Part shown: piece by piece, positions 19,283-34,965 of the stretch
Numbering within the stretch: position 1 is the first letter of the stretch
Layout of the letters: each line of letters starts with the position of its first letter
Virus record (IMG/VR): IMGVR_UViG_3300002026_000066
Location: 1 to 43,016 of that record
Length of the DNA stretch: 43,016 bases
Direction: 5' to 3' (one strand)
From: a virus
Position numbers and translations under genes: made by a program
Notes under the pieces: model-generated
Databases searched by the model: none
What the model saw: the letters and a program-made list of their open reading frames with translations, nothing else
What the model was told of the DNA's origin: nothing

Positions 19283-19404
19283 AAGGGGTGATGAGCAGGA
19301 CATGAGAGGGGCCTGAAGTTTTTTTACCGACAGGCCGCCCCGGATTGCTGCGCAGGGGCTGGCTGCTGACAACACAAGCGCGGCGTCGAAAAGGAGTTTT
19401 GAAA

Positions 19405-20082
19405 ATGATGCGTAGATACCTGACCGAGGCCGAACAACGTGCCTTGCTGGCTGCCCCCAAGGGGGTGGCTTGCCCGCTTGCCCAGCGGGATTACCACTGC
19501 CTGGCCGCGCTGATGCTGACCGGCATGCGCATTACCGAGTGGAGCCGCCTGACGGTGAGCATGGCCAAGCAGGCCATGGCCATGGGCTGGCTGGTGTGCC
19601 CGCCCGAGCATTGCAAGGGCAAGCGCGGCAACGAGTATTTGGTGACTGAGCAGCTTCGCCACCACCTGGCCGCGCTGTGCCGGCTGAGTGACGAGCTGGG
19701 CGCGGGGCTGCTGGTGCCCGCTGCTGGCCAGCCGTTGGTGTGGGGCCGCGATGTGGCGGGCCGTGCTGGGCCACTGAGCGTGCGCAGCTACGAGGTGCGG
19801 CTGAAAGAGTGGGCTGTAGCTGCGGGGCTGGACGGGCGCATCAGCCCGCACTGGCTGCGGCACACGCTGGGCATGAACATCATGCGGCGCAGCCGGGGGG
19901 CGCACCCGCTGAAGGTGGCGCAAATTGCCCTGGGGCACAAGTGCATTGGCAGCACTGGTGTGTACACGCAGTTGGCGCGTGAGGAGGTGGAGGCTGAGCT
20001 GCGACTGGTGGCGGCTGGCGGTGGGCGCATGCCCAAGGCGGTGGCGCGGCGCTTGGCGTTGCATGGCGGGGTGGTGTCATGA
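19405..20082 (+). CDS. Short tyrosine recombinase (catalytic domain only, about 225 aa)
   Basis: AAGGAG ribosome-binding site. Catalytic signature: R in LTGMRITEW, HxxR in SPHWLRHT, and H...Y in LGHKCIGSTGVYT. There is no N-terminal core-binding (SAM-like) domain. Confidence 0.75.
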   Translation: MMRRYLTEAEQRALLAAPKGVACPLAQRDYHCLAALMLTGMRITEWSRLTVSMAKQAMAMGWLVCPPEHCKGKRGNEYLVTEQLRHHLAALCRLSDELGAGLLVPAAGQPLVWGRDVAGRAGPLSVRSYEVRLKEWAVAAGLDGRISPHWLRHTLGMNIMRRSRGAHPLKVAQIALGHKCIGSTGVYTQLAREEVEAELRLVAAGGGRMPKAVARRLALHGGVVS

Positions 20083-20704: not shown

Positions 20705-20844
20705 AACACATCGATGCGGCCCGCCACTGCCACAAGCTGGTGGTGACCGCTGCCAACCGCATGGCAGCCGTGGCCGAGGTGGAGGCCTTGTTTGGCCCGG
20801 GCTGGGTGGTGAGCGCCATGCGCCTGCTGAAGAAGGAGCGCTGA
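20686..20844 (+). CDS. Small hypothetical protein (52 aa)
   Basis: ATG at 20686 preceded by GGAGGTG, inside the track ORF 20623-20844. Confidence 0.4.
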   Translation: MQRWKLKHIDAARHCHKLVVTAANRMAAVAEVEALFGPGWVVSAMRLLKKER

Positions 20845-20845
20845 C

Positions 20846-21025
20846 ATGCCGCACCGCACCCGACGTTTGCTGCCCTGGTGGCTGCGCTGCCTGCCCACCG
20901 CGCTGGCGGGCGAGTTCCCCAGCCTGCGCATGTTTTACCTGTGGAGCCGGTCTGCCGGGCGTGGCCGCTGGGCTGCGCTGGTGCATGGCTGGGATTTGTT
21001 TGTTTTCTACGCCAAGAGGAAGTGA
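20846..21025 (+). CDS. Small hypothetical protein (59 aa; below the ORF-track length cutoff)
   Basis: Hand translation gives MPHRTRRLLPWWLRCLPTALAGEFPSLRMFYLWSRSAGRGRWAALVHGWDLFVFYAKRK*. It exactly fills the gap between neighbouring genes and has GC-rich third positions. Confidence 0.35.
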   Translation: MPHRTRRLLPWWLRCLPTALAGEFPSLRMFYLWSRSAGRGRWAALVHGWDLFVFYAKRK

Positions 21026-21029
21026 CGCG

Positions 21030-21416
21030 ATGTTGAACACCCTTTACCTGACCCTGACCACTGGACCCAGTGGCGGGGTGGACATTGCTTGCAGTGAGGA
21101 GCGCCTGGTCGTGCCCCTGCACAAAGCATTGCCAGATGAAAGCAGCTCGGGCTTTGCTCCGGCCAGCCTGCACACCATGGCTTGGGATTTGCTGGCGTTT
21201 GCCAGCATCAAAGGCTGCCGTGTGGGCGGCGCTGTGACCGCACCCCGGGTGAACCCGGTGCTGCTGATTGGCCTGGCCAATGCGCTGCTGGACCCCGAGC
21301 AACTGGGCTACGCCGTGACGGCTGAGGTGCGCGACATGGCGCGTTTGGCGCTGGGCATGCCTGCGGTGGAGAGCCACTTGAAGCCGCTGGCTGTGACGGA
21401 TTGGAGTTCCACATGA
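21030..21416 (+). CDS. Hypothetical early protein (128 aa)
   Basis: ATG at 21030 inside the track ORF 20667-21416. The upstream part of that ORF looks non-coding in this frame. Confidence 0.5.
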   Translation: MLNTLYLTLTTGPSGGVDIACSEERLVVPLHKALPDESSSGFAPASLHTMAWDLLAFASIKGCRVGGAVTAPRVNPVLLIGLANALLDPEQLGYAVTAEVRDMARLALGMPAVESHLKPLAVTDWSST

Positions 21417-21874
21417 GCACCAATAAGCAACTGTCACAAAGACTTTTTGATGCGTGTATGCGCGTAGATCGGGTGATTTTCCTGGCTGGCGCGGTTGCCG
21501 CTGGAGACGCTTTTTGCGATGACCTTGATGCGTTCCTGGACGATACGGATGAAGAAATCGTGGTGGCGTGCTTGGGCCCGATTCCTGATGACATTGACCT
21601 GAGTTACCCGGCCTATGAAAGGGCCGAGTTGGTTTCGACTTGGCTGTACACGGCGAACAAGTTGGGGTTCTTGGTGCAGGTGGCCACACCTGTGATGACA
21701 CGGATGTCACTCACCAGCCGCCACTTTTCGTGGGGCTACTACAACACGCAATGGCTGTACGGCGACACCATGGATGAGGTGGTTTCCAAGGCAGTGGATT
21801 GGGCGCAGAAGAGGCGAGACGCCGAGGATGCCAAGGCCGAAGAGGCAAAAAATGCGAAAGGCGGTGCCGCATGA
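21413..21874 (+). CDS. Hypothetical early protein (acidic)
   Basis: ATGA overlap with the upstream gene. It ends with the conserved ...GGAA* junction. Confidence 0.5.
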   Translation: MSTNKQLSQRLFDACMRVDRVIFLAGAVAAGDAFCDDLDAFLDDTDEEIVVACLGPIPDDIDLSYPAYERAELVSTWLYTANKLGFLVQVATPVMTRMSLTSRHFSWGYYNTQWLYGDTMDEVVSKAVDWAQKRRDAEDAKAEEAKNAKGGAA

Positions 21875-22530
21875 GCTGGATGCTGACCGCCCAAGGGCAC
21901 GAACACCACATGCTGGGCCCGCAGGCCATGGCCAACACGTTTGAGCTGGAAGACGTGGCGCACGCCCTGGCGCTGCAAAACCGCTTCAATGGCCACACCC
22001 GCCGCCCCTACAGCGTGGCCGAGCACAGTTTGCTGGTGGCCGACATTGCCCTGGCCGATGGGGCCAGCGTGGCCCAGCAGCTGGCCGCACTGATGCACGA
22101 CGCCCACGAGGCCTACACAGGCGACGTGGTGAGCCCGGTGAAGTGGGCCGTGGGCCAGCCGTGGCAAGACTTTGAGGCTGGCCAAGCCCACCTGCTGCGC
22201 AAGAAGTTTGGGCTGCTGAGTGCGTTTGCGAGCTGCCGCCAAAGCTTGCACCAGTGGGACTTGATGGCCCTGGCCACCGAGCGGCGCGACCTGACGATGT
22301 ACGAGGCCCCGCGCCATGCGCCCTGGGCCATTCTGGACACCCCGGGCAAAAAGGTGCTGCCGTGGGACGACGCCAACCTGAACAGCCCTGCCCGCGTGCA
22401 GGCCGACTGGCAGGAGTGGAAGGCTCTGTTTGTGGTGCGGGCGAAAGACTTGGCTAGGGCGGTGCGGGAAGTCAGGCCGGTGGTGGAGCCTGGGCATGCT
22501 GAGGGGCAGGCGGGGAGGGTTGAGGCATGA
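21871..22530 (+). CDS. HD-domain phosphohydrolase (YfbR/5'-deoxynucleotidase-like)
   Basis: Motifs RFNGHT..YSVAEHSLLVA and AALMHDAHEAYTGD give the H...HD...D metal-binding signature. Confidence 0.75.
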   Translation: MSWMLTAQGHEHHMLGPQAMANTFELEDVAHALALQNRFNGHTRRPYSVAEHSLLVADIALADGASVAQQLAALMHDAHEAYTGDVVSPVKWAVGQPWQDFEAGQAHLLRKKFGLLSAFASCRQSLHQWDLMALATERRDLTMYEAPRHAPWAILDTPGKKVLPWDDANLNSPARVQADWQEWKALFVVRAKDLARAVREVRPVVEPGHAEGQAGRVEA

Positions 22531-22973
22531 ACAACATTGCAAGGCCCAGTTTTGAGCTGGAAGCATATGAAGACGCCACGCTGCCAACAGGCAAACGCCT
22601 GCATGAGGCGCAAGAGTTGGTTGGCCACACCATCAAGTGCATGGTGGAGTACCCGATTGGCCGCCTGGGCGACTGGGTGAACCTGGTCATCGTGACCGAG
22701 ACACTTTGCTGGCTGACTGTATCGGGCGAAATGTCAGGGTGCAGCGCCGAAGACGGTACGCACTTGAGCTATTCAGGCAAAGCGTACCGCAGCGAAACCG
22801 AGGTTCTGTCTGACTACCTGTGCCCTAAGGAGATGCTGCACAACGGGCTCATTTCCCATGGCCAGTTTGACGCGCTTCAAGAAATTGAGGGCAAGCGAAT
22901 TGAAGCCGAAAAGGCGCAGAAGGTAGCCGAGCTGCGCAAGGAACTGGCACAGCTGGAAGGCGGTGCCGCATGA
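22527..22973 (+). CDS. Hypothetical protein
   Basis: ATGA-coupled ORF of 148 aa, somewhat lower in GC. It ends ...LEGGAA*. Confidence 0.5.
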   Translation: MNNIARPSFELEAYEDATLPTGKRLHEAQELVGHTIKCMVEYPIGRLGDWVNLVIVTETLCWLTVSGEMSGCSAEDGTHLSYSGKAYRSETEVLSDYLCPKEMLHNGLISHGQFDALQEIEGKRIEAEKAQKVAELRKELAQLEGGAA

Positions 22974-23332
22974 CCTTGCACGATGCAGGCCCTTGGTTGG
23001 GCAGGGATGAACACGGCAGATACAAGGCAACCCCCAACTGGACAGCCATTTGCAATGGCCTTGGCTTCTACCAATACGCGCCCATTTGGGCTGGCGACAA
23101 GGTAGTGGCTTTGGTGGTTGGATCGTCTGGCGAGACGTTTGGCACCGACCCGGCGTTTGAGGCCAACGCGGCGCTGATTGCTGCCGCCCCTGATTTGCTG
23201 GCCGCCCTAAAGCTGTTGGAGGCGGAAGGTTTTGGCGAACGGCCAAAAACCGCCGAGGATTTGCTGAGGATGGACGGCATAGCGGTGATTGCCAGCACCG
23301 CCATCGCCAAAGCGGAAGGCGGTGCCGCATGA
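22970..23332 (+). CDS. Hypothetical protein
   Basis: ATGA-coupled ORF of 120 aa. It contains ANAALIAAAPDLLAALK, a motif common in small phage proteins of unknown function. Confidence 0.5.
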   Translation: MTLHDAGPWLGRDEHGRYKATPNWTAICNGLGFYQYAPIWAGDKVVALVVGSSGETFGTDPAFEANAALIAAAPDLLAALKLLEAEGFGERPKTAEDLLRMDGIAVIASTAIAKAEGGAA

Positions 23333-23889
23333 ACCCCTTCGCCCAACTGATTGCGCCCCAGGCCTTCACCCGCCGCCGCTTGCCCGCCACGGGTGCGGTG
23401 GTGACGGTGCGCGAGGGTGTGGCACTGGTGCCCCCTGGCCGTGGCCGTGGCCGCCAGGTGCCTGACAAGCTGGCCAGCCTGCCGGTGTTGGATGCTGACG
23501 ATGCGGCCGATGCCGAGGCGCTGCGCAGGCAACTGATGCGCGAGCGGCAACGCCGCTGGTACGCCGACCGCTATGCCCGCAACAAGCAAGACCCGGCATA
23601 CATGGCAGCCCGCCGTGAGCGCAACCGCCTGCTGTACCAGCGCCCTGAGCAGAAGAAGCGCCAAAAGCGCTGGGAGGCCGACAACGCTGAGCGCTTGCGT
23701 GCCTACAAGACCCAGTGGGCGCAGATGCAGCGGGCCAATGAAACGCCCGAGGAAAAGGCTGCCCGCCTGGCCGTGGCCCGTGTGAAGCAGCGGGAGTACT
23801 ACGCCAAGAACCGCGAGTTGCTGAATGAGAAGCAGCGGGCGAGGCGTGAGGCGAAGGCGGCTGCTTTGGTGGCTGGGGGTGCGATATGA
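23329..23889 (+). CDS. Basic Arg/Lys-rich repeat protein (unknown function)
   Basis: 186 aa with reiterated R..(W/Y)Y...(Y/N).(R/K)N-type segments: RQRRWYADRYARNKQD, RERNRLLYQRPEQ, KQREYYAKNRELL. Confidence 0.5.
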   Translation: MNPFAQLIAPQAFTRRRLPATGAVVTVREGVALVPPGRGRGRQVPDKLASLPVLDADDAADAEALRRQLMRERQRRWYADRYARNKQDPAYMAARRERNRLLYQRPEQKKRQKRWEADNAERLRAYKTQWAQMQRANETPEEKAARLAVARVKQREYYAKNRELLNEKQRARREAKAAALVAGGAI

Positions 23890-24347
23890 AGATGGCCAAG
23901 GCAACCGAAAAAGACATTGATGCCGCTGGCGATGCAATGTCTGTGCTGAACGCTGTCAGCAGCGGCTACTACCCAGCCCGAGATGGTGATGAAGACGCCC
24001 CACTGTTTTTTGACCCTGACGACCACGAACACCTGCGCAAGTTCTACGACTTGATGAATGCCACGCTTGACAAGTCGGCAGGCTGGCCATCGCGCGTCAT
24101 TGGCGGCATGTGCTTCGTGATTTTGTTTGATCAAAACGAGATTGTTGACCCATCCGCAGACACGCTTGAACTGCACCCGAAGTTTGAGCACCAGCACCGA
24201 CTGTTGGCCAACTGCCGCTTTGCCCTTGATTCGTTGTTGCAAGCCAAGCCAGTGCTGGCGGGCATGGTGTGTGGAGAGACGACGCTGGGGAATTTGCGCG
24301 CCGAGTTGGGGGGGGTTCGTCGGACTGAAGCGGGAGCACCCACATGA
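23886..24347 (+). CDS. Hypothetical protein
   Basis: ATGA-coupled ORF of 153 aa, lower in GC. Confidence 0.5.
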   Translation: MKMAKATEKDIDAAGDAMSVLNAVSSGYYPARDGDEDAPLFFDPDDHEHLRKFYDLMNATLDKSAGWPSRVIGGMCFVILFDQNEIVDPSADTLELHPKFEHQHRLLANCRFALDSLLQAKPVLAGMVCGETTLGNLRAELGGVRRTEAGAPT

Positions 24348-24571
24348 CCCAGCGCACCTATCTGGCCAACGATGTGTCCCGCTGCTTTGGCGCGTTGGCA
24401 GGCGAGCCACCCGGCACGCCGCTTGCCCCATGCGACACCTGCGCCCGGTACCACTTTCTGAAACAAACCGACCAACACCAGCGCTGGCTTATCAGCCCGC
24501 CACGCACTGACGATGGCCAGTGCGTGCGCCACCTTGACATGCAGTTGCCGCAGCAGGAGATGTTTGCATGA
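24344..24571 (+). CDS. Small Cys-containing hypothetical protein
   Basis: ATGA-coupled ORF of 75 aa. Confidence 0.45.
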   Translation: MTQRTYLANDVSRCFGALAGEPPGTPLAPCDTCARYHFLKQTDQHQRWLISPPRTDDGQCVRHLDMQLPQQEMFA

Positions 24572-24834
24572 GCCAACAGACCATGACCGGTGATGACTGG
24601 CTGAGCGACCGAGATCGCAAGGAACAAGCCCGCGCTGTGGCCAACCGCAAAAAGACCGCCATTGCGTGCGCCAAAAAGCTGGAGGCAGCCGCCGATTCGC
24701 TCAACGAGTTGATGCGGGCATGCAATGAGTGCCACGACTCCAGCTCTGTGCGCCGGGCGGATGACGGTCGGCAGTTGCTGGTGGAGCGGCTGATGGAGTT
24801 CAGCCATTGGCTTGACGCTGCCTACAACAAATAG
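24568..24834 (+). CDS. Hypothetical protein
   Basis: ATGA-coupled ORF of 88 aa. Confidence 0.45.
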   Translation: MSQQTMTGDDWLSDRDRKEQARAVANRKKTAIACAKKLEAAADSLNELMRACNECHDSSSVRRADDGRQLLVERLMEFSHWLDAAYNK

Positions 24835-24896
24835 AAACAAAAATGCCGTCTTGCGCTTGATGGCATTGCATTTCCAGCTACAACAAAAACACACTT

Positions 24897-27770
24897 ATGG
24901 AACAAACAAAAGGCGCTTTTCGGCCTGGCGCGGTCGATGAGCTGAATGCGCGCATTGACTGCCACGACCTGGCGCAGCGGCTGGGGCTTGAGCAGCCGCA
25001 GCAGCGGGGCAACTACCGCAGCCCGCACCACCCCGACAAGGCCCCCAGCGTGGGGGTGTACAAGGACAAAAAGTCGGGCCTCTCCAAGTTCATGGACTAC
25101 AGCACGCAAGAGGGCGGTGGCCCCATTGACATGCTGATGTGGGCCGAGGGGCGCGACTTTGTGGGCGCTGTGCGCGAGCTGGGCAACATGTTTGGCATTG
25201 CGGTTGACCGGCCCAAGCCCCAGGGCAACGGGCAGCCGGGGCCGGTGGTGAAGCAGAGCCTGGCTGAGTTCATTGGCGAGAAGTGCCGCAAGGCTGTTGC
25301 CACCGATGACGGCAAGGCCCGCGTGCAGGCCTACCTGGAGGGCCGGGGCATTGCCCGTGCCGTGGTGGACCGGTCGCTGGCCAAGGGCTCGTTGGGCCTG
25401 AACACTTACCTGAACGACAAGGTGCCCGAGGGCCAGCCTGGCCACGGTGGGCCAGCGGTGGCGTTTTTGGTGCGCCACATTCAAACGGGTGAGGTGGTGG
25501 CGGTGGACATGCGCTACTTCAACCCCGAAATCAACGGCCACGTCAAAACCCAGTGCCAGGGCGAAAAGCACGGTTTTGCCTGGACGAGCGACTGGCGCCG
25601 GGTGCGCGATGCCCGCACGGTGTATGTGGTGGAGAGCCCCATCAATGCCCTGACCATCGAGACGTGCATGGACCCGGCTGACGGCAGTAAGTACGACGGG
25701 CGGGTGGCGGCAGTGGCCATCCGTGGCACGGGCAATGTGGACAACATTGACTGGAGTTTTTGCCGGGGCAAACAGGTGATTGGGGTGATGGACAACGACC
25801 CGCCCCAGGCGCACGGGCCCCAAGAGGGCTATTGCCCCGGCCTGAAGGCTGCGTGGCGGCTGCACGAGGTGCTGACGGCGTTGGACATTTCGTGCCTGCT
25901 GGTTGACCAGGCCGGTTGGTTTGAAGACCAGGCCGACATGGACGGCCCGCTGAACGATGTGAACGACTTGCTGAAGGAGTGGGGCGCTGACGCTACCCGC
26001 AAGGAGTTGGCCAAGCTGGAGCAGTGGCTGATACCCGGCATGGTGGGCAACGAGAAGCGCCTGGGCAAGCCCCGGTTGTTTTTGCCCAGCCACGACTACA
26101 TGACGTACTGGAAGTACCGGGTGCAGCCCGACTTCACCAAGCTGATTGGCAAGACCACCAAGGAAGATGACGGCAACGAGAAGCACGAGTTTTCAGACGT
26201 GTGCGGCTTTCGGGTGGCTGCCGTGGCCCGTGTGCGCATTGCCAGCCCGCAAAGCACCATGACGGGCGACGTGGACCACAGCCCACGCACCGTGTTTGCC
26301 CTGAGCGTGCAGGTGGCGCGGCATGGCCCCGTGTTGCAGCGCCGGGTGGTGGATGACGAGCGCCTGCACAACGTGGAGGTGTGGAAAAAGCTGGGCCCGG
26401 TGTATGCCCCGCAGGGGTTTGCCCGCCTGGTGAACATTTGGGAGCGTGCGGCCGAAATTGGCAGCCGCGAGGCCGTCAACTTTGTGGGCCTGGCCTGGCG
26501 CAATGGCAAGCCGGTGGTGAACGAGGGGCCTGACTGCTTTTTTCAAGACCCCCGCCAGCAGTGCCCGTACCACGAGCTGTTGTTTCCGGTGGGCACGGTG
26601 GCGCAGGGGCGGGAGGTGGTGGAGCAGTTTCGCCACACGTTCAAAGACAGCGTGGCGCTGATGCCGCTGGTGTGGGGCCTGGGGGCGCACCTGAAGGCGT
26701 TTTTGGGCTTTTGGCCGCACTTTGTGATGCAGGCCGAAAAGGCCACGGGCAAAACCACGCTGGTCAAGCGGCTGGAGCGCAGCATTGCCATGGTGATGAG
26801 CAGCCGCCAGAGCCTGCAGACCGAGTTCAGGCAGATGACTTCCTTGAGCTACACCAGCCACCCCGTGGGCTGGGGGGAAATGAGCACGAACAAGCAGGAC
26901 ATCATCAACAAGGCGATTCACAACCTGCAAGAGAGTTACCAGTACGAGCACACGCGCCGGGGCTCTGAACTGCTGGACTTTTTGCTGTGTGCCCCTGTTT
27001 TGCTGGCCGGTGAGGATGTGCCGGTGGACAGCCTGGTGGGCAAGGTGGTTCGCAGTGAGCTGACGAAGGGCCGGCGCGGCCCGCTGATACCTGAGGATTG
27101 CCCGGTGTTCCCGGTGAAGCAGTGGTTGCAGTGGCTGGCCAAGCGCAGCAAGGACGAGGTGGTGAGCCTGCACAACGGCATGGTGAAGACGTTTTTTGAT
27201 GGCTGCGTGGCCAGCATGAACGACAGCGGCGCGGAGCGCATGGTGAACAACTATGCCGCGCTGGGCACGGCCTGGGAGCTGCTGTGCCGTTTTTTGGGGC
27301 TGGAGGTTCACAGCACGCCGTTCACGGGGGACTTGATGGCGGAGATGAACCGCCACATCCGCGAGACGGTAAGCGACCGCCAGCCGTGGGCCTGGGTGGT
27401 TGAGAAGCTGTTGAGCGAGATTGCGGCCAAGAAGCTGTTTCACCCGTTTGCGTTTGATGTGGTGACCACTGACGGCACGCATGAGCAGCGCGCGGTGCTG
27501 TGCATTCGCACCAGCCACGTGATGGACCACATGCGCCAGACGCCGTACCTGCGGGAGTTTTGGGACGGCTTGCCGATCAAGAGCGATCGGGTGTTCAAGC
27601 GTCAGCTGGAACAGGCTGGTGTGCTGGTGATGGACCCGGCCACGGGCAATGCACGGATGTTTGAGAAAACCATTGGCCACAACCGCGTGGGCTACATGGT
27701 GGGCCTGAGCCTGCCTGCCCTGATGCAGTACGGGCTGCATGCGGTGGTGCCTACTGAAGGGGGTGTGTGA
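24897..27770 (+). CDS. Primase-helicase (degenerate CHC2-like N-terminus, Toprim domain, P-loop NTPase)
   Basis: The Toprim-like region is VYVVESPINALT...AVAIRGTGN...VIGVMDNDPP. The Walker A-like motif is AEKATGKTT. The N-terminus aligns to the DnaG zinc-finger region (HHPDKAPSVGVY...GGGPIDMLMW) but lacks the Cys ligands. Confidence 0.8.
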   Translation: MEQTKGAFRPGAVDELNARIDCHDLAQRLGLEQPQQRGNYRSPHHPDKAPSVGVYKDKKSGLSKFMDYSTQEGGGPIDMLMWAEGRDFVGAVRELGNMFGIAVDRPKPQGNGQPGPVVKQSLAEFIGEKCRKAVATDDGKARVQAYLEGRGIARAVVDRSLAKGSLGLNTYLNDKVPEGQPGHGGPAVAFLVRHIQTGEVVAVDMRYFNPEINGHVKTQCQGEKHGFAWTSDWRRVRDARTVYVVESPINALTIETCMDPADGSKYDGRVAAVAIRGTGNVDNIDWSFCRGKQVIGVMDNDPPQAHGPQEGYCPGLKAAWRLHEVLTALDISCLLVDQAGWFEDQADMDGPLNDVNDLLKEWGADATRKELAKLEQWLIPGMVGNEKRLGKPRLFLPSHDYMTYWKYRVQPDFTKLIGKTTKEDDGNEKHEFSDVCGFRVAAVARVRIASPQSTMTGDVDHSPRTVFALSVQVARHGPVLQRRVVDDERLHNVEVWKKLGPVYAPQGFARLVNIWERAAEIGSREAVNFVGLAWRNGKPVVNEGPDCFFQDPRQQCPYHELLFPVGTVAQGREVVEQFRHTFKDSVALMPLVWGLGAHLKAFLGFWPHFVMQAEKATGKTTLVKRLERSIAMVMSSRQSLQTEFRQMTSLSYTSHPVGWGEMSTNKQDIINKAIHNLQESYQYEHTRRGSELLDFLLCAPVLLAGEDVPVDSLVGKVVRSELTKGRRGPLIPEDCPVFPVKQWLQWLAKRSKDEVVSLHNGMVKTFFDGCVASMNDSGAERMVNNYAALGTAWELLCRFLGLEVHSTPFTGDLMAEMNRHIRETVSDRQPWAWVVEKLLSEIAAKKLFHPFAFDVVTTDGTHEQRAVLCIRTSHVMDHMRQTPYLREFWDGLPIKSDRVFKRQLEQAGVLVMDPATGNARMFEKTIGHNRVGYMVGLSLPALMQYGLHAVVPTEGGV

Positions 27771-28075
27771 TGGCCCGGCTACACAAAAACCCTTCACTGC
27801 GCCTTTCCGTGTGCTACATTGGCCGTGCCCCATCAAAAAAAGGTGGGGCCGGGTTTGGCGACCCGAAACAATCCTGCGACGAAAGCCGCAGTTCCTCACC
27901 CGCAGAGTCTGCGGCTTCGTTGTCTGTGCCTCCAGTTTTATGGTGGCTCGATGGGAGGCCGAAAGGCCTGCCGGTTTCCGCAAGGATTGTCCGGTTCGCC
28001 AACCCGTCGAGCTACCGCCCCTGTTTGGCGACGAGGGCGGTGGTTTTTGCAAACCACAATCCTTGGAGGCCTTCA
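27771..28075 (+). other. Structured non-coding region (candidate ncRNA or replication origin)
   Basis: No convincing coding frame. Several hairpins are present: 27880-27919, GAAA tetraloop 27956-27969, 27993-28004, 28041-28056. A 9-bp long-range pairing joins 27982-27990 to 28056-28064. The 10-mer GTTTGGCGAC is repeated at 27853 and 28023. Confidence 0.4.
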
Positions 28076-28381
28076 ATGGCTGCTGCCCACACCCGCCCGG
28101 ACGCGTCCGGCGCATCTGCCCGTTCCCACGTTTCCACCGCTGCCCCTGGCCCTGACACCGACTGTCTGGCCGAGCTGCTGCATGGCTGCACCGCTGAGTG
28201 CGCCCACACAACCCAGGCGCTGGCCAGCTTGGTGCAACTGCTGCAAGGCTGCCAACCCGGCCACACCCTGAGCGCTGGCGGCCTGCTGGCCCTGCTGGAG
28301 CCGCTGGCCGGTTCGCTCGACTCGCTGTGCAACGACTTGCACACCGCGCATTCCCTGTTCCCCCAGCCACACCACCACTGA
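28076..28381 (+). CDS. Hypothetical protein (101 aa, helical, Cys/His-rich)
   Basis: GGAGG lies 8 nt upstream of the ATG at 28076. Only the 3' third of the track ORF 27767-28381 looks protein-like. Confidence 0.4.
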   Translation: MAAAHTRPDASGASARSHVSTAAPGPDTDCLAELLHGCTAECAHTTQALASLVQLLQGCQPGHTLSAGGLLALLEPLAGSLDSLCNDLHTAHSLFPQPHHH

Positions 28382-28392
28382 AAGGCACCGCC

Positions 28393-28938
28393 ATGGACAA
28401 CATTCGTTTTGCCAAGCTGCCCAAGGGGGCTTACCTCATCGTCACAGACGGCTCTGAGAGGGGGGATTTTGAAACCGTCATCAAAAACCTGGCTCGCCAG
28501 ATGGCGTCAGGCTCTTCAGAGCTGCTGAGTGATGCCAGCCTTCTGGATTGGATTGGACGCACCAAGCCCAGGGCAGTGGCAACACCCGCTGATTCGCATC
28601 GGGCGATCAGCATTCACCTGCTGAAACATGCGTTCAAGGTGATGGCCATGGGGAATTTCCGCCGTCCGTATCGCTGGGATGCCTTCAGCGGCTGGGTGGA
28701 CGTTCGCATGACGCACCTGGCAGAGCTTCAGACGGATGAAACAGCCGCTCGATGGGGGGGCAAGGTCACTTCCCGTGTGCTGCAACGTGAGTTGCTGAAT
28801 TTGGGCTTGCTGGACGCCCTGAGCAGCGGCAAGGCCAAGGAGGTGGAGAGGACGATTGATGGCCACCGCGTGGGCCACATGGTTTCCATTCACATTGGCA
28901 CCGCCACCGAGTTGGTGTTGGCCCACCCGGAGGAGTAA
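28393..28938 (+). CDS. Hypothetical protein whose C-terminus is paralogous to the primase-helicase C-terminus
   Basis: ATG at 28393 inside the track ORF 28198-28938. The segment TSRVLQRELLNLGLL...VERTIDGHRVGHMV aligns with SDRVFKRQLEQAGVL...FEKTIGHNRVGYMV of the 24897-27770 product. Confidence 0.5.
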   Translation: MDNIRFAKLPKGAYLIVTDGSERGDFETVIKNLARQMASGSSELLSDASLLDWIGRTKPRAVATPADSHRAISIHLLKHAFKVMAMGNFRRPYRWDAFSGWVDVRMTHLAELQTDETAARWGGKVTSRVLQRELLNLGLLDALSSGKAKEVERTIDGHRVGHMVSIHIGTATELVLAHPEE

Positions 28939-29652
28939 CGGAAATGCGGCCCACCAAGGCGTTTTCGGGCGTTGCCCATGCCAGTGCATCAACCTCGCGC
29001 CAAAGTCGCCTTGTGGGCGGTTTTGGCGGGTCGGTTTTGCAGGTCTGGCCCCAGCCCCACGTTCTAGGCATGGGGGAGGGTGGTGCTTACCCGGCCTGTA
29101 TGCCCCCCCGTATCCCCCGCCTAGAAAGCCGCGCACCTGTGGGGGGGCAGACCAGCAGGAGGGAGGGGGCGGCAATAGATTTTCTCAACCGGGATGGGGT
29201 GGCACTCTTCAAAACGTCCCCAACTCTGGGAAAGTTACCGTTTTCGTCCGTGGAAGTGGCTCTGGCTATAGGTTTCTTGCTTTTTTGCATCCCAGAAATG
29301 CAACCAAAGTCCCAAGATTTCGCACGTTTTTTCCACGAGTCTGTTTTTTGGGTTTTCGCGCCCCTTCTTCTTCTTTTTCTTCTTTTTATAGAGAGAGAAA
29401 CAGAGGTAAAGATGAGGGGTGACGGGCGAAAAAGTGTCCCAAGAGTCAGCCGTTTTTTTACTTGGAAAGTTTTCCGCAAAAAAAACGGGGATCAAGAGTC
29501 GGGGACTCCGAAACGAGCTAATTCAAGGATTTCTGGGGCAGGCGTTTCCAATGAAATCAACGGGTTAGGTGTGTTCGATGGGGTCATCCCAGCAAACAAG
29601 AAAGAAATGCCCCCCTCCCCCCCGCGATCGCTGTTTTTTGGAGGTGCCAGCC
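28939..29652. other. Roughly 700-nt non-coding tract upstream of the tyrosine integrase gene (candidate attP and/or large ncRNA)
   Basis: All ORFs here translate to low-complexity sequence. Contents: C7 and G7 runs that can pair (29101-09 with 29141-49); a 27-nt pure pyrimidine run (29361-87) followed by a purine-rich run; GTCCCAAGA at 29309 and 29436; CAAGAGTC at 29440 and 29493; about ten (C/G)GTTTT(T) motifs. Confidence 0.5.
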
Positions 29653-30690
29653 ATGGCCAATGAGATCGAATGGACTGACGAGCTGGCCGTGGGTGCCTAC
29701 CTGGACTATTTGGGCATGGCCCGTGGCCTGAGCCCGCGCACGCTTGAGATTTACGGGCTGGCCTTGCGTCGGCTGAAGGAGTTTTTGCAGGGCAAGCCGC
29801 TGCTGGACGCTGACGGCATGGAGTTGGAGGCGTTTTGTGGCCTGTGGCTGCACCGCAAGGGTGTGGTGGCCACCAGTCGCAAGCCGTATGTGGCCGCGGT
29901 GCGCAGCTTTTACGCCTGGGCCAATGACAAGGGGTTGCTGGAAGATGAGCTGGGCAACCCGGCCAGGCAGGTGCAGCAGCCGAAGGGGGGCAGCCGGTTG
30001 CCGCGCTCGATGTCGCTGTCAAGCGCCGAGAAATTGATGTGGGCCCCTGACCTGGGCACGTTTGTGGGCATTCGGGATGCGGCCATGTTGTCGCTGCTGA
30101 TGGGCTGTGGCCTGCGTGTGTCGGGCCTCACAGCCCTGAATGTGGGCGACCTGAGGACGATGCAGGTGGATGGCCGCCCCCGCCTGATGCTGCTGGTGAC
30201 CGAGAAGGGCAACCGTCAGCGCATGGTGCCCTTGCCGCGTGAGGCTGACAGCCTGTTGCGGGTGTACATGGGGCATGAGGAACTGGCCAGCATTGACCGC
30301 CAGGTGACGAACCAACAGGGCAAGCCTGACAAGGTGCTGTTCGTGAACACCAAGCACCCAGCCCTTGCCGAGCATGAGCATGTGGGCGAGGCCCGCAGGC
30401 TGACGCGCCGGTCTGTGCACGACATGATCCAGCGCTATGGCCGCCGTGTGGGCATCCCTGAGCATGAGCTGCACCCCCATGCCATGCGTCACCTGTTCGG
30501 TACCGAGTTGACCGAGGGCGACGTGCCCACCATCACCACTCAGGGGCTGATGGGCCACGTTGACCCCAAGAGCACCGCTATCTATGTGGAGCTGGCCATG
30601 ACCAAGAAGATGAAGGTGGTCGACCAGCACGCACCGCTGGCCAAGATGAAGACGCCCGTAGGCGAGTTCCTCAAGCGCATGCCGCGCTGA
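29653..30690 (+). CDS. Tyrosine recombinase/integrase, XerC/D-like (345 aa)
   Basis: GGAGG ribosome-binding site. N-terminal SAM-like core-binding domain (YLDYLGMARGLSPRTLEIYGLALRRL). Catalytic R (CGLRVSG), HxxR (HAMRHLF), and H/Y (GHVDPKSTAIYV). Confidence 0.85.
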   Translation: MANEIEWTDELAVGAYLDYLGMARGLSPRTLEIYGLALRRLKEFLQGKPLLDADGMELEAFCGLWLHRKGVVATSRKPYVAAVRSFYAWANDKGLLEDELGNPARQVQQPKGGSRLPRSMSLSSAEKLMWAPDLGTFVGIRDAAMLSLLMGCGLRVSGLTALNVGDLRTMQVDGRPRLMLLVTEKGNRQRMVPLPREADSLLRVYMGHEELASIDRQVTNQQGKPDKVLFVNTKHPALAEHEHVGEARRLTRRSVHDMIQRYGRRVGIPEHELHPHAMRHLFGTELTEGDVPTITTQGLMGHVDPKSTAIYVELAMTKKMKVVDQHAPLAKMKTPVGEFLKRMPR

Positions 30691-30986
30691 TTCCCCTGAG
30701 CCCTGCACCACCAGGGCCAAACCCCAACCCCCAATTTTTCACACCATTCTGAGGGCCATCCCGATATGTCCGTCCTACCTGCACCATTACACAACGCCTA
30801 TTCTGGGGGGGTCTACAAACCCTGCGCCGCTACAGCCGTAGAGCGTGGCGGCCTGGGCTTGCGGGGTTCCGCAAATTTCCCGAATATCGGGCTAACTCGT
30901 GCGAGGGGGGTCGATGGGTCGCTGCGTTGTTTGGCAATAGTCGCAGTGATGCACACTGGCTGCACTGGCATGGCAGGGGGTGCACG

Positions 30987-31475
30987 ATGATGCAAAGTCG
31001 CAGTGATGACGGTGCAGGCCTGCAGCTTGATTGGGTTGGTGGTGTGCCTGTGCAGGGGGTGGGGGCTCGGCAGGCCAGCCCCTCACGGCCCCGGCGGGGG
31101 GGTGGGTACCTGGATGAATGCATTGCTCCGCAACTTTCGGCTGATGCCCGATTTCGCGAGCTGGAGGAAATGGGCCTGCCCGCCGTGTGGCTGACCCTGG
31201 CCCATGCCATTGGCTATGACCACTTCATGACCATGTGGCGTGTGTTGGATGCCGCGCAGGAAATGCATTCCGACTCTGGCTCGATGATCGAGCTGCAAAT
31301 GCGCCGGTACGGCAGCTTCAAGCGCTTCCAGCGCAACCGTTATGTGGAAACTCTGGTTGACATGGGCTTGTCAGACACGGCCATCAAAGACCGGCTGCAG
31401 GCTGAGTTGGGTGAAGAGCTGAGCATTTCTCACATTGGTCGGCTGACCGGCCCGCGTAGAGTGGGGGCACGATGA
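30987..31475 (+). CDS. Mor-like HTH protein (possible transcription activator or recombination directionality factor)
   Basis: The C-terminal RNRYVETLVDMGLSDTAIKDRLQAELGEELSISHIGRL resembles the Mor/middle-operon-regulator HTH. ATGA-coupled to the serine recombinase gene. The start is uncertain. Confidence 0.4.
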   Translation: MMQSRSDDGAGLQLDWVGGVPVQGVGARQASPSRPRRGGGYLDECIAPQLSADARFRELEEMGLPAVWLTLAHAIGYDHFMTMWRVLDAAQEMHSDSGSMIELQMRRYGSFKRFQRNRYVETLVDMGLSDTAIKDRLQAELGEELSISHIGRLTGPRRVGAR

Positions 31476-33094
31476 AAAAAGCCGTGATCTATGCCCGCGT
31501 GAGCACCAAGCGCCAGGCCGATGACGGACTGCCGGTGGAGAGTCAGATTGACCACTGCCAGACCAAGGCCGCAGGCATGGGGCTGCAGGTGGCCAAGGTG
31601 TTTGTGGACGGCGGCATTTCAGGCACTACCGACAAGCGCCCCGCCTTTCAGGACGCACTGAACTACTGCGCGCTGATGGACGTGGACTACTTCATTTGCT
31701 GGAGCAGCAGCCGCTTTGCCCGCAACCACCTGGACGCTGGCCACTACAAGGCCCAGTTGGCCAGGTACGGCACCCGGCTCATTTACAGCAGCACGGAGGT
31801 GGACATTCGCACCGACGACGGCTGGTTCATTGATGCCATTGGCTCGGTCATTGACGAGCGGTATTCGCGCCAGGTGAGCACCGACACGCGGCGCAGCATG
31901 CTGAAGGCCGCGCGCGACGGGTTTTTTCTGGGTGGCCGTGTGCCGTTTGGGTACCTGACGGTGCCCGACGGCAAGCGAAAGCGCCTGGCCGTGCACCCGG
32001 TGGAGGGGCCGCAGATTCGGCGTCTGTTCGACATGGCGCTGAACGGCTGGGGTACCAAGATGATTGCTCTGCAGCTCAATGCCCAGGGGCTGAGCATTCG
32101 GGGCAAGGCCTGGAGCAAAAACACCGTTAATTTCATTCTGAAGAACGAGGTGTATGCGGGCCTGAGCGTGTTCAACCGCAAAAAGGGCCGTGTGGACAAC
32201 CCGCGCGAGGACTGGGTGAAGGTCACCAGCCATGAGGGCTTGGTGAATGAAGCTGATTTTGAAAGGGTGCAAACCATGGTGACCGACCGACAACCCATGA
32301 ACGTGGGTGGCCAGCCGCGTAGCAACTTCGCCTTCACCGGCCTGCTGCAGTGTGGCGTGTGCGGGGCCGGCCTGCAGACCTGCAGCGGCACCGGGCGCAG
32401 CAAGGTGTATCACTACTACGGCTGCCGTGACGCTTTGAGCGGCAAAAACCGCTGCAGCATGAAGAAGGTGAGGGCAGACCTGTTTGACGAATGGATGCTG
32501 TCGGCCTTGCTGGACGAAGTTCTGACGCCCGAACGCATGCTGGATGTGTTTGCCCAGGCTGCGGCGCAGCGCCAAGAGTGGGTGAAAGACCGGGCGGGTC
32601 GTCGAGAGGGGTTGGTAAACGAGATGCGCACGGTGGAGCGGTCTCGCGGGAATCTTTACGGCTTGCTAGAGCTGCACGGGGTGAACGCGCCAAATCTGGG
32701 GGATTTGACGGTTAGGCTTCGGGAACTGAACGAGCGCCTGAAGAAGCTGGAGGCAACGTTGCTGGAGCTGGAGAGTGAACCTCTGTCGCCAGGCGATTTG
32801 CCCGATGCGGATCCGCAGGAGGTGGCTGAAGTGCTGAGGGGGGTGGTGATGGATTGCCAGGATCCACGCAAGGTGCGTGCGTTCTTGGGGTCATTTGTGA
32901 AGGGAATTAGCCTTGGCGAATCAACCGTGGAGGTTGAGTATTTGCCGGAGTGCCTGGTGCGGCTGAATAGCCGCACCAGGGTTCACAGTGGTAATGGTTG
33001 GCTCCCCAACCTTGGCACACAGCGAACCATTACGGCCACGTTGGAGCGGCCTTTGCGGTTTGGTGTCAGGTGGGTGGATGCCATTGCGGCCTGA
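31472..33094 (+). CDS. Large serine recombinase (540 aa)
   Basis: N-terminal resolvase domain AVIYARVSTKRQ (catalytic Ser), recombinase domain, zinc ribbon (LQCGVCG...YYGCR...RC), and a C-terminal coiled coil. Confidence 0.9.
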   Translation: MKKAVIYARVSTKRQADDGLPVESQIDHCQTKAAGMGLQVAKVFVDGGISGTTDKRPAFQDALNYCALMDVDYFICWSSSRFARNHLDAGHYKAQLARYGTRLIYSSTEVDIRTDDGWFIDAIGSVIDERYSRQVSTDTRRSMLKAARDGFFLGGRVPFGYLTVPDGKRKRLAVHPVEGPQIRRLFDMALNGWGTKMIALQLNAQGLSIRGKAWSKNTVNFILKNEVYAGLSVFNRKKGRVDNPREDWVKVTSHEGLVNEADFERVQTMVTDRQPMNVGGQPRSNFAFTGLLQCGVCGAGLQTCSGTGRSKVYHYYGCRDALSGKNRCSMKKVRADLFDEWMLSALLDEVLTPERMLDVFAQAAAQRQEWVKDRAGRREGLVNEMRTVERSRGNLYGLLELHGVNAPNLGDLTVRLRELNERLKKLEATLLELESEPLSPGDLPDADPQEVAEVLRGVVMDCQDPRKVRAFLGSFVKGISLGESTVEVEYLPECLVRLNSRTRVHSGNGWLPNLGTQRTITATLERPLRFGVRWVDAIAA

Positions 33095-33155
33095 TGGTAT
33101 CCTGATGCTGCCCCAGTCTCTGGGGCCTCCCTTTCGACGCTTGGCGTTGATTCAC

Positions 33156-33183
33156 GCCGGGCCTTTGGGTCTGGCTTTTTTTT
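33156..33183 (+). terminator. Rho-independent terminator after the serine recombinase gene
   Basis: Stem gccgggcc / ggtctggc (8 bp including 2 G-U pairs), tetraloop tttg, then T8. Confidence 0.6.
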
Positions 33184-33210
33184 GTCACAACACTATTCAG
33201 GGGGCCAAAA

Positions 33211-33528
33211 ATGGCACTGGTGAATTGCAAGGAATGCGGTGCAGAGGTCAGTACGGACGCGAAATCGTGTCCCAAGTGTGGGGCGCGGATGAAGCCCAAG
33301 AGCAACCTGTGGAAATGGATTGTTGGCTTGCCGATTGGTGGCTTTGTGCTTCTGATGGTGATTGGTTCTTTTGGGATGGGCAGTCCTGAAGAACAACAGG
33401 CCAGGCGGACATACAAACAATGCCTGAAAAACCTGGAGAGCGCACCACCAAGCGTGCGCAGCACGATCAGCGGGGCGTGTGATTTGCTGGAGTCGCAGTT
33501 CAGGGCGAGATTCGGCAAGAACCCCTGA
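33211..33528 (+). CDS. Zinc-ribbon membrane protein (possible lysogenic-conversion gene)
   Basis: N-terminal CKECG...CPKCG zinc ribbon followed by the TM helix WIVGLPIGGFVLLMVIGSF. Flanked by terminators on both sides. Confidence 0.6.
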   Translation: MALVNCKECGAEVSTDAKSCPKCGARMKPKSNLWKWIVGLPIGGFVLLMVIGSFGMGSPEEQQARRTYKQCLKNLESAPPSVRSTISGACDLLESQFRARFGKNP

Positions 33529-33533
33529 AGCTG

Positions 33534-33977
33534 CTACTCGCTGGGATCGAGCGCCGGGCCTTGAGCCCGGTTTTTTTCGTCTGTTGGGCGGCGGTCTCTG
33601 GCGAACAGAACCCTTGTGCTGGGGGGCACCACGGTTTTGCTGGTGTCGAGGGCTTGCAAGATGGCCCCGTATGACGTTTTGCGCGCGGCCTTGATCGTCA
33701 ACAAGGTGCCGCCGCCGCTGTAGCCAGCCAGCACCAGGCGGGCGAGGGCCTCTGTGAAGGTGCCGCCTTGCTCGTCCATTTCATCCTGAACGGCAATCAC
33801 GACTTCTTCGGGGTAGTCGGTGGTGGGGGCTGACGCCTGAACCAGTGATGCTGCAAGGCGCTCTGTGACCTCCGCGTTGAAGCTTCGCCGCGCATCTTGC
33901 GCAGCCTTGGTGATTGCTTCCTTCAGTTCTGCGGGAAGCCGCAACGGGTAGGCGGGTGCTTGATGTCTATCGGTCAT
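33534..33977 (-). CDS. Arc/Mnt-type RHH repressor with a C-terminal domain (Mnt-like position)
   Basis: The start is taken at MTDRHQAPAYPLRLPAELKEAITKAAQDARRSFNAEVTERLAASL, a typical Arc-domain N-terminus. The track ORF extends to 34034. Divergent from the arc-like and antirepressor genes. Confidence 0.65.
   Translation of the reverse strand: MTDRHQAPAYPLRLPAELKEAITKAAQDARRSFNAEVTERLAASLVQASAPTTDYPEEVVIAVQDEMDEQGGTFTEALARLVLAGYSGGGTLLTIKAARKTSYGAILQALDTSKTVVPPSTRVLFARDRRPTDEKNRAQGPALDPSE
33554..33577 (+). terminator. Rho-independent terminator
   Basis: Stem ccgggc / gcccgg with loop cttga, then T7. It lies within the 3' end of the convergent minus-strand ORF. Confidence 0.65.
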
Positions 33978-34013
33978 GTGTCGATTGTGGACATCATCCT
34001 GAATCTTTTCAAA

Positions 34014-34050
34014 GATACACATTGACATCCACAAGATGTGTATCTATTAT
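34014..34050 (+). promoter_or_regulatory. Near-consensus sigma70 promoter (TTGACA-N17-TATTAT) overlapped by a 9-bp inverted-repeat operator
   Basis: TTGACA at 34022-27 and TATTAT at 34045-50, with a 17-nt spacer. The inverted repeat GATACACAT (34014-22) / ATGTGTATC (34036-44) brackets the -35 element and spacer. CATCCACA-like half sites also lie nearby. Confidence 0.65.
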
Positions 34051-34088
34051 TCATCCACACCAAACAGGTGTTCGATGAAAGGAAGCAC

Positions 34089-34256
34089 ATGCCAACCCCC
34101 AATCCCCGATCCCCAACAAGCCTGCGAATCCCTGATGAGCTGAAGAAGTGGCTCAAACACCGTGCGGTTGACAACAACCGTTCGTTGCCCGATGAGATTT
34201 TGGCCATCTGCAAGGACTTGCAAAAGAAAGAGAAAGCCCATGCCCCACAAACCTGA
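34089..34256 (+). CDS. Arc-like RHH repressor (55 aa)
   Basis: AAAGGAAG ribosome-binding site. The sequence PTSLRIPDELKKWLKHRAVDNNRSLPDEILAICKDL fits the Arc pattern, and the gene lies immediately upstream of the antirepressor gene. Confidence 0.65.
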   Translation: MPTPNPRSPTSLRIPDELKKWLKHRAVDNNRSLPDEILAICKDLQKKEKAHAPQT

Positions 34257-34965
34257 AGCCCCAAAAGGAAACGCCCCGGCTGCGCTAACAGCCGAGGCGT
34301 TGGATGCGAAACCCTCAAATCACCAAAGGAATCACACCGTGAATTCTAAAGCCACCCCCGCAAATGACCAACAGGCAACCGATGTGGTGCCGTTGATCCC
34401 CGTCCTGTTTGACCAGGACACCCTGATTTTGGTTGAGCATAATGGCCAGCCTTATGTGGTCATGAAGCCCTTGGTAACCGCCATGGGCCTCGATTGGGCC
34501 AGTCAGTTCGTCAAAATTGGGCAGAAATTTGAGTCAACCGTTGTGGAAATCACAACGGTTGGAGAAGACGGGAGGCTTCGCACCATGATCTGCATCCCGT
34601 TGCGCAAGCTGCCGGGCTGGCTTTACTCCCTCAACCCTGGAAAGGTGGCGCCTCACCTGCGAGCCAAAGTGGTCCGCTACCAGGACGAATGCGACGAAGT
34701 GCTGTGGCGGCACTGGACGGGCACCTACACCCCCACACACAGCACGGCCAACTTGGGTTTGTCACGCCTGAACCTGAGCTATGAGCGTGAGCACACCCGC
34801 GTTTGCTTGGAACTGTCCAAGTGCACCGAGCTTGGCCTGGGTGATGCCCTGTTCGACAAATACCAGCGGCTGTGTGCGTTGTTGGGGGCCAAGGTGATCA
34901 AGCTGGATGACTTGGCCCCAGGCCTGCGGCAAAAGCGCTTGGCTTTGGAAGGGGCAGGGTCATGA
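34240..34965 (+). CDS. Antirepressor (P22 Ant-type N-terminal domain)
   Basis: The sequence LILVEHNGQPYVVMKPLVTAMGLDWASQFVKI...EDGRLRTMICIPLRKLPGWLYSLNPGKVAPHLRAKVVRYQDECDEVLWRHW matches the P22_AR N-terminal domain pattern. Confidence 0.8.
   Translation: MPHKPEAPKGNAPAALTAEALDAKPSNHQRNHTVNSKATPANDQQATDVVPLIPVLFDQDTLILVEHNGQPYVVMKPLVTAMGLDWASQFVKIGQKFESTVVEITTVGEDGRLRTMICIPLRKLPGWLYSLNPGKVAPHLRAKVVRYQDECDEVLWRHWTGTYTPTHSTANLGLSRLNLSYEREHTRVCLELSKCTELGLGDALFDKYQRLCALLGAKVIKLDDLAPGLRQKRLALEGAGS

Follow-up and report, generated by a model that had tools for sequence, protein, structure and literature searches.

Three Recombinases in One Temperate Phage: A Probable Serine Integrase of tRNA-Asn Genes and Two Tyrosine Recombinases

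Introduction

What does a single phage do with three site-specific recombinases? The question is raised by a stretch of viral DNA of 43,016 nucleotides (nt), positions 1 to 43,016 of IMG/VR virus record IMGVR_UViG_3300002026_000066, and above all by its positions 29,653 to 33,094. The whole stretch is called the window here, and it is the entire record. The same 91 nt stand at its beginning and at its end; it is therefore a circular assembly, with a genome of 42,925 nt. The three genes are labelled Tyr, a XerC/D-like tyrosine recombinase gene; LSR, a large serine recombinase; and sTyr, a short tyrosine recombinase. The open reading frame (ORF) between Tyr and LSR is called the helix-turn-helix (HTH) partner.

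The presence of three recombinases in one phage had been proposed from the letters of the DNA, in what is called here the sequence-only reading, and is borne out by Pfam, PHROGs, and NCBIfam. The phage is temperate and carries three intact DNA recombinases, and no gene resembles a remnant. LSR is very probably the prophage integrase, and it appears to act at a host tRNA-Asn gene. What can be called new and firm is which enzyme acts as the integrase, where its attP lies, and that tRNA-Asn is the target, together with the finding that the three recombinases are modular and shared by the whole family.

The Probable Integrase and Its Attachment Site

LSR (31472..33094, + strand) encodes a protein of 540 amino acids (aa), and its assignment as prophage integrase draws on Pfam, PHROGs, and gene fusions to tRNA-Asn. 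The protein has the domains of a large serine integrase, namely a resolvase domain with its nucleophilic serine (Resolvase, PF00239, residues 4–150), a recombinase domain (Recombinase, PF07508, residues 176–273), and a cysteine-rich zinc ribbon (Zn_ribbon_recom, PF13408, residues 288–346). It matches PHROG 95, "integrase", at 6.5e-94. Residues R9, S11, C294, C297, and C318 are invariant in five sequences.

Evidence for the site at which LSR acts can be found in prophages. Three of these are G001, a provirus from an isolate genome; G002, a prophage in a metagenome-assembled genome (MAG) of Burkholderiaceae; and G003, a prophage in a Rhodocyclaceae MAG. In all three, the LSR reading frame enters a tRNA-Asn(GTT) gene of the opposite strand about 20 codons before its usual end. 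The contig of G002, 76 kb long, carries both prophage ends. At one of them, ARAGORN and Rfam call a tRNA-Asn that overlaps the LSR stop codon on the opposite strand. At the other end, the same short core lies between a host terminator and phage sequence with homology to the window just right of 33005. The core shared by attL and attR measures 10 bp in G002 and 15 bp in G003, and two mismatches beside it in G002 put the crossover within or left of TGGCTCC. The crossover lies at the discriminator/CCA end of the tRNA, and the tRNA is therefore wholly host-derived and intact.

The same arrangement can be seen more widely. The ends of 31 LSR genes in IMG/VR are fused to tRNA-Asn, and at least 13 LSR loci show the unintegrated, dyad form when a strict pattern is applied. 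In all informative proviruses the split falls at the LSR site, and never 5' of the Tyr gene. The prophage junctions that the sequence-only reading had proposed to look for in host genomes have therefore been located (G001–G003 and the 31 loci), with the LSR site in use and a tRNA-Asn gene as the target.

In the free form, attP is an imperfect inverted repeat of 47–49 bp around the core, as seen in the relatives. The candidate attP of the window is a 49-bp imperfect dyad at 32980..33028, within the last 38 codons of LSR; its centre is C33004 and its core TGGCTCC spans 32999–33005. The P and P' arms rebuilt from attL and attR of G002 and G003 show homology to it. The inverted arms co-vary between phages, with up to 12/12 and 14/14 complementary positions. 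A tRNA scan of the window finds none; attP merely mimics the tRNA end.

The form of the site also bears on the kind of enzyme that uses it. The arms of the dyad lie about 25 bp apart, which does not fit a tyrosine-recombinase core. Where LSR is inverted, as in the contig L083, the dyad is still at the LSR 3' end, and in the relative G012, in which LSR and Tyr lie at opposite ends of the provirus, LSR is the gene at the provirus edge. In attP, 17 nt separate the outer motif CGAACC from the core; on the tRNA side of attB, where the T-loop supplies the motif, the distance is 12 nt. This difference fits the serine integrases, in whose attB sites the zinc-ribbon motif is shifted inward by 5 bp (PMC3783163). 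The sites of LSR combine the marks of serine-integrase sites: a dyad attP, a common core of 10–15 bp, and the motif shift, the last on the tRNA-side arm only. Two points weigh against this account. The host-side left arm of attB is without a clear shifted motif, and the crossover dinucleotide can be placed only to within the core of 7–15 bp.

In the proposed mechanism, LSR would recombine the dyad attP of about 49 bp in the 3' end of its own gene with an attB made up of the 3' acceptor/CCA end of a host tRNA-Asn(GTT) gene and the flank behind it. The crossover would fall within the shared core TGGCTCC and leave the tRNA intact. In the resulting prophage, the last ~30 codons of LSR would be swapped for ~13 codons read from the opposite strand of the tRNA. 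The integrated LSR has a different and shorter C-terminal tail than the free-phage form.

Some further observations concern LSR and its sites. In L043, a second, tandem tRNA-Asn gene lies about 100 nt beyond the tRNA of attR, so some hosts offer two adjacent targets. At 7700–7760 of L083, the variant LSR, inverted relative to Tyr and the HTH partner, has a dyad with 18-bp arms around a different core, which suggests a different target. L079 has the same variant gene in a form cut short after about 400 nt. Comparison of positions 19000–34500 of the window with contigs from four public runs reveals no strand-changing joints; contigs cannot show rare variants. In run X1, the likely source sample, the Logan contigs leave a gap from 32960 to 33010, across the attP core, and breaks are frequent elsewhere too. 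This break could reflect mixed integrated and free forms; nothing is concluded from it.

A palindrome at 33110–33126, named by the sequence-only reading as a candidate recombination site, lies outside the mapped attP. It is found 3' of the LSR stop codon and before an intrinsic terminator (33156..33175, + strand). This terminator, detected by a consensus scan, closes the Tyr-HTH-LSR unit, and the same hairpin is kept in the contig L036.

Distribution and Modularity

Relatives of the window are reached by protein search only: a distant-mode DNA search of the phage collection with 28–34 kb of the window gave no match. At least 165 IMG/VR contigs carry relatives of Tyr and at least 96 carry relatives of sTyr, with many contigs in common. 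Three recombinases, at first sight an unusual count, are the norm in this family.

Gene order and content were counted at the 80 best Tyr loci from IMG/VR, 72 of which are informative for the HTH partner. The order Tyr-HTH-LSR of the window is found at 58 of them, and LSR is inverted at two. Eight loci have Tyr and the HTH partner without LSR. The rest comprise two loci with Tyr and LSR and no detectable HTH partner, two with Tyr alone, and eight that are too short. The prophages G001, G002, and G003 carry all four genes.

Modularity was checked in five complete relatives with sTyr (G009–G013). Two of these have a classical tyrosine integrase, which is 388 aa long and at the prophage end in G009, a genome without Tyr, and 401 aa long and at the end in G013, a genome with Tyr. 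Another two have a distant LSR; G011 is without Tyr, and G012 has Tyr near the opposite end. The last, G010, has Tyr with a family LSR directly 3' of it, and a further tyrosine-recombinase-like ORF (338 aa) nearby; it is a direct terminal repeat (DTR) record with no provirus end. From this comparison the integration module is exchangeable and can be this LSR, another LSR, or a classical integrase, and Tyr and sTyr are internal. The LSR-less provirus G006 begins with 2.8 kb of phage genes, so it is uninformative on prophage ends. Relatives that carry only part of the enzyme set, which the sequence-only reading had suggested searching for, do exist, for instance G009, G011, and the eight loci with Tyr and the HTH partner but no LSR.

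As far as sequence comparison can tell, Tyr and sTyr are conserved backbone genes of a large phage family. That the three recombinases are independent modules, none of them a remnant, can be held with good confidence. It is also somewhat probable that they represent three separable modules, an LSR integrase, a Tyr resolution unit, and sTyr, of temperate siphophages that form a widespread family and apparently infect Betaproteobacteria.

A different explanation for so many recombinases would be that one or two of them are inactive remnants, or that the region is an assembly chimera. A point in favour is that the array of 8-mers 5' of Tyr, described below, is degenerate in the window. The three recombinase ORFs themselves are intact, with high third-position GC in all, and each of the enzymes looks active. 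Both tyrosine recombinases have the R-K-H-R-H/W-Y residues of their superfamily in a PF00589 fold. The catalytic residues had been judged intact by eye, and this holds among relatives: R155, K185, H276, R279, H302, and Y311 of Tyr are invariant in 27 sequences and R42, K71, H149, R152, and Y187 of sTyr in 28, at only ~30–60% identity, in addition to the LSR residues given above. An assembly chimera is excluded by the recurrence of this gene set on many independent contigs; the arrangement is shared by 58 independent loci, by proviruses, and by a cultured phage. The chance that remnants or a chimera account for the region is very small.

The Xer-Like Recombinase and Its Leader

The window has a G+C content of about 63% and nearly all of its genes on the + strand. 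Capsid and tail genes come first, followed by lysis genes and a leftward repressor region. The early operon contains a CII(CP76)-like gene, sTyr, and a primase-helicase of 957 aa. The recombinase cassette lies 3' of this operon and is followed by an Arc/Ant module and then by packaging and portal genes. A terminator-like hairpin at 28998..29028 (+ strand; 14 stem pairs and a T-run, from a consensus scan) ends the early/replication operon and forms the left border of the cassette.

Tyr (29653..30690, + strand) encodes a two-domain, XerC/D-like tyrosine recombinase of 345 aa with the Pfam domains Phage_int_SAM_1 and Phage_integrase. It matches the Xer models of NCBIfam over its full length with 161–169 bits, against cut-offs of 279–335, and so falls below the XerC/XerD equivalog cut-off.

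The gene-free tract at 28939–29652 is the conserved leader of Tyr. Its conserved non-coding part (29030..29652) contains a CT-run/GA-run and about six 8-mers. In the window the CT-run/GA-run spans 29356–29419, where ~32 pyrimidines are followed directly by ~32 purines, with the switch at 29387/29388. About 65 of the 80 loci have a CT-run of 20–25 nt and then a GA-run of 20–25 nt, 190–270 nt 5' of the Tyr start. This element might serve as a core for recombination, help to unwind the DNA, or belong to a promoter.

The array of 8-mers lies 3' of the CT/GA element. The family motif is TCCACRGG, and the 8-mers of the window are a diverged form of it. Their positions are kept in G001, G002, L003, most paired genomes, and the cultured Microcystis phage vB_MaeS-yong1 (yong1). 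In relatives, the array holds one inverted 8-mer pair around a T-rich spacer of 5–7 bp; the leaders of G001, L003, and yong1 have a site with arms of 7–10 bp and a spacer of 5–7 bp, once per genome. The motif clusters only in the leader in G001, G002, and yong1, and the one convincing palindromic core of G001 and yong1 is also in the leader. These features are kept across relatives at 42–97% Tyr identity, and in yong1 the leader travels with Tyr.

We propose that Tyr, the HTH partner, and the leader would form a transcription and recombination unit of their own, and that Tyr would not be the prophage integrase. Acting on the single site in the leader, Tyr might resolve multimers of the circular phage genome in the manner of Cre/loxP or TnpI/IRS. 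The unit probably also regulates itself. Single-site multimer resolution is a tentative proposal, suggested by the form and number of the leader sites.

Several points weigh against it. The 8-mer array of the window is degenerate and without a clean palindromic core, so that Tyr may have a different site in this phage, or one in decay. The Tyr proteins of the window and L003 are 96.5% identical, yet their 8-mer variants differ, which weakens the idea that Tyr itself reads the 8-mers. Phages that package concatemers have no obvious need for dimer resolution. Finally, the HTH partner is translationally coupled to LSR and would also fit a role with LSR. The C-terminus of the primase was also considered as a reader of the 8-mers and was rejected, as it shows no co-variation with them between the window and L003.

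Tyr could alternatively be a second integrase, with the HTH partner as its excisionase and the leader as a second attP, so that the phage would have two alternative chromosomal sites. A site array, a recombinase gene, and a small HTH gene together resemble attP-int-xis modules; the leader is rich in repeated motifs of the kind that bind proteins, and some relatives have Tyr and the HTH partner without LSR. However, no examined provirus is split at the leader, and in G002 the leader is internal, with both prophage ends at the LSR site. The two complete genomes without LSR, of which only G013 has Tyr, have a classical integrase of 388–401 aa at the end. Tyr is also without an arm-binding domain, its N-terminus being a SAM-like core-binding domain. 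Dual integration sites had been among the meanings offered by the sequence-only reading. They find no support, with all informative proviruses split at the LSR site, and we consider them improbable.

Another of the meanings offered there, an integrase combined with a dimer-resolution or inversion system, can be kept in part. The junctions point to LSR as the integrase, and resolution by Tyr stays the best reading of the second system. Inversion is less probable, with one palindromic core per genome.

The HTH Partner

The HTH partner (30987..31475, + strand; ORF 30927/30987–31475) has 162 aa when read from the ATG at 30987. According to an alignment of 27 relatives and an AlphaFold2 (AF2) model, its N-terminus is disordered and contains an invariant motif rich in Gly and Arg, and its C-terminal domain is made of six helices and has an HTH at its end. 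Residues 48–154 of the model have a predicted local distance difference test (pLDDT) score above 90. The gene follows Tyr at 68 of the 72 informative loci, including eight without LSR. Its ORF overlaps the LSR start by 4 nt, and this overlap is kept in five relatives, in agreement with the translational coupling that had been noted from the sequence. The predicted complex of Tyr and the HTH partner received a score of 0.00, which counts neither for nor against binding.

The protein had been called Mor-like, a label that can be retained only as a weak resemblance of fold. It has no match in Pfam (E up to 10), none in NCBIfam, and no sequence match in the PDB, and Foldseek with the model gave no match at E <= 0.001. 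In VIA-align comparisons, it matches Mu Mor (1rr7) with Z 5.0 over 79 residues and Mu C with Z 5.4. A small-terminase HTH scores higher (Z 7.1), and the Mor/C matches are within the generic HTH range.

Two other roles for the HTH partner have to be weighed. One is that of a recombination directionality factor or other cofactor of LSR, a role that would be compatible with the other readings. The stop/start overlap of 4 nt with LSR, conserved in six genomes, points in this direction, as does the disordered N-terminus, whose invariant Gly/Arg motif is what might be seen in a docking peptide. Yet the HTH partner and its N-terminal motif are kept in at least eight relatives without LSR, and about 2 kb separate it from LSR in L048, L052, L053, and L061. 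Co-transcription with the integrase would also be odd for a factor that is due to be absent during integration. A function as LSR cofactor is unlikely on this evidence.

The other is that of a Mor/C-type activator of packaging and late genes, with Tyr flipping or locking a leader segment that bears a promoter. In relatives without LSR, the HTH gene lies directly 5' of the packaging genes; the leader is at a fixed distance from the Tyr start, like a promoter region, and the weak likeness of fold to Mu Mor and Mu C would agree. Against this stand the missing Pfam Mor match and the presence of just one palindromic core in each genome, since two inverted sites are required for a segment to be invertible. 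In yong1, moreover, the unit does not adjoin the packaging genes. This regulatory role, too, has little probability, and a resolution unit made up of Tyr, the HTH partner, and the leader is retained here as the working proposal.

The Short Tyrosine Recombinase

sTyr (19405..20082, + strand; ORF 19345/19405–20082) encodes a tyrosine recombinase of 225 aa that consists of a catalytic domain only. The gene follows the CII(CP76)-like gene of the early operon. Phage_integrase (PF00589) is its sole Pfam domain, matched over positions 2–171 of a 172-position profile. The AF2 model has a pLDDT of 91.5, and the best-matching folds are XerH, XerA, and the XerD catalytic domain.

The surroundings of sTyr suggest where it belongs. 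A CII-like gene is found 5' of it at 53 of 80 loci, and a primase-helicase lies within 6 kb 3' of it at 47 of 80, sometimes adjoining. From this linkage we infer that sTyr belongs to the early/replication module. It would be an enzyme of that module, independent of LSR and Tyr, and it does occur without the genes of the other two recombinases, as in G009. A replication-linked role in nicking and rejoining DNA is a guess.

A conserved non-coding site 5' of sTyr was looked for among the relatives and was not found. A short DNA invertase of the FimB/FimE type was considered and rejected, since sTyr scores 24–25 bits against a cut-off of about 221 and has no conserved upstream site. The only inverted pair near sTyr, at 20259/21814, is weak, being 80% complementary.

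Taken with Tyr, sTyr raises the possibility, a doubtful one, that the family carries two undescribed tyrosine-recombinase systems. One would be the Tyr unit, acting on the circular genome of the phage itself, and the other sTyr, with a topoisomerase-like activity or one that processes replication intermediates, in place of classical site-specific recombination.

Mobility of the Cassette and Neighbouring Elements

The Tyr unit is bounded by the terminator-like hairpins at 28998–29028 and 33156–33175. The unit travels as one block; the cassette follows the primase in the window and the lysis genes in yong1, and it is inside the head operon in L043, L047, and L048. Similarity between cassettes in different contexts begins 510–625 nt 5' of the Tyr start.

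The sequence-only reading had considered a nested mobile element. In such a case the region from 29.0 to 33.2 kb would be a self-mobile cassette that Tyr inserts into phage genomes, with LSR and attP as cargo. Its three different genome positions among relatives and its own terminators suit such an element, and in two phages with different contexts the similarity starts ~620 nt 5' of Tyr. At the borders, however, neither direct nor inverted repeats of at least 9 nt are present, and the boundary of similarity falls 5' of the site array, not at its palindromic core. LSR may also be absent, inverted, or 2 kb from Tyr and the HTH partner, and ordinary mosaic exchange therefore explains the pattern. 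What stands of the suggestion is a separate, terminator-bounded unit at varying positions; self-mobility, with no flanking repeats and a boundary off the core, has a low probability.

Other elements are found near the cassette. Rfam reports a C4 antisense RNA (RF01695) at 27936–28022 of the window (+ strand), just 3' of the primase-helicase, with 64.8 bits against a gathering threshold of 45; the 5' part of the ORF at 27767–28381 is therefore probably not coding. C4/isrK RNAs were considered as a fixed part of the cassette and rejected. They lie 5' of it in the window and between Tyr and the HTH partner in G003, and are absent in four relatives. The ORF at 28393–28938 (+ strand), which lies 3' of the C4 RNA and 5' of the leader, matches no family and has no homologue in L003, although the flanking genes there are 92–97% identical, which makes it a swapped gene. 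A match to the Rfam RT-15 RNA (159 bits) at 10127–10309 of L033, in the G003 prophage, suggests cargo associated with a reverse transcriptase.

Significance

The family offers dozens of natural attP, attL, and attR examples aimed at the end of a universally conserved tRNA gene, which makes it a comparative data set. Such a set is useful for studying how serine integrases read their sites and for finding new integrases for genome engineering. The number of integrases is also a poor guide to phage lifestyle, given that two of the three recombinases here appear to be conserved backbone genes with other roles. As yong1 has been cultured, the roles of Tyr and sTyr are open to ordinary genetics.

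Comparison with Known Systems

The closest cultured counterpart is yong1 (MT855965.1); no other cultured phage of the collection has the four genes in the order of the window. Its genes are a XerD-like gene, a "middle operon regulator", and a Pin-like LSR, with a short XerD-like gene in the early operon, and their products are each 34–39% identical to the window proteins. The cassette of yong1 differs in its position, between the lysis genes and the repressor region, and the record annotates the genes without interpretation. A literature search on tRNA-Asn serine integrases and mixed-integrase phages found no description of this phage family. The recorded host of yong1 is Microcystis, and the relatives with a named host context are Burkholderiaceae and Rhodocyclaceae MAG prophages. 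One measured stretch of yong1, about 1 kb long, has a G+C content of about 65%. The recorded host may deserve a check, as a misassignment is possible.

Tyr resembles XerC and XerD in its full-length alignment to their models, its catalytic hexad, and its SAM-like N-terminal domain. It differs from them in that its scores are far below the orthologue cut-offs, it is encoded by a phage, and no dif-like site or link to FtsK is evident. Another group of enzymes acts in single-site tyrosine resolution systems, such as Cre/loxP of P1, ResD/rfsF of F, and TnpI/IRS of Tn4430 and Tn5401. Like these, Tyr is a simple two-domain enzyme with a candidate site just 5' of its own gene, and the leaders of relatives resemble single-site resolution sites in having an inverted motif pair, a spacer, and flanking direct copies, one per genome. 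Tyr has no sequence-level membership in these systems, however; it has an additional HTH partner and a CT-run/GA-run, and the window is without a clean core.

LSR shares the order of resolvase, recombinase domain, and zinc ribbon with the integrases of Listeria A118/LI, phiC31, Bxb1, and SPbeta (SprA). As in other large serine integrases of phages, its attP is a dyad of about 50 bp with a short common core at the crossover, and the outer motif is 5 bp nearer the centre on the host side (PMC3783163). No directionality factor of LSR was identified in this analysis.

LSR differs from known serine integrases in two respects. The first is that attP is within the integrase ORF, so integration swaps the C-terminal tail of the protein. 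The second is its target, the 3' end of a tRNA gene, which is a usual target for tyrosine integrases. A limited literature search found no description of a serine integrase acting at such a site.

A parallel can be found in the SSV1-type integrases of Sulfolobus, which have attP inside the int gene and a tRNA gene as target. The SSV1 Int is a tyrosine recombinase, and its integration splits the int gene in two. In LSR, by comparison, only the last ~30 codons would be exchanged, and the reading frame is kept open through the opposite strand of the tRNA.

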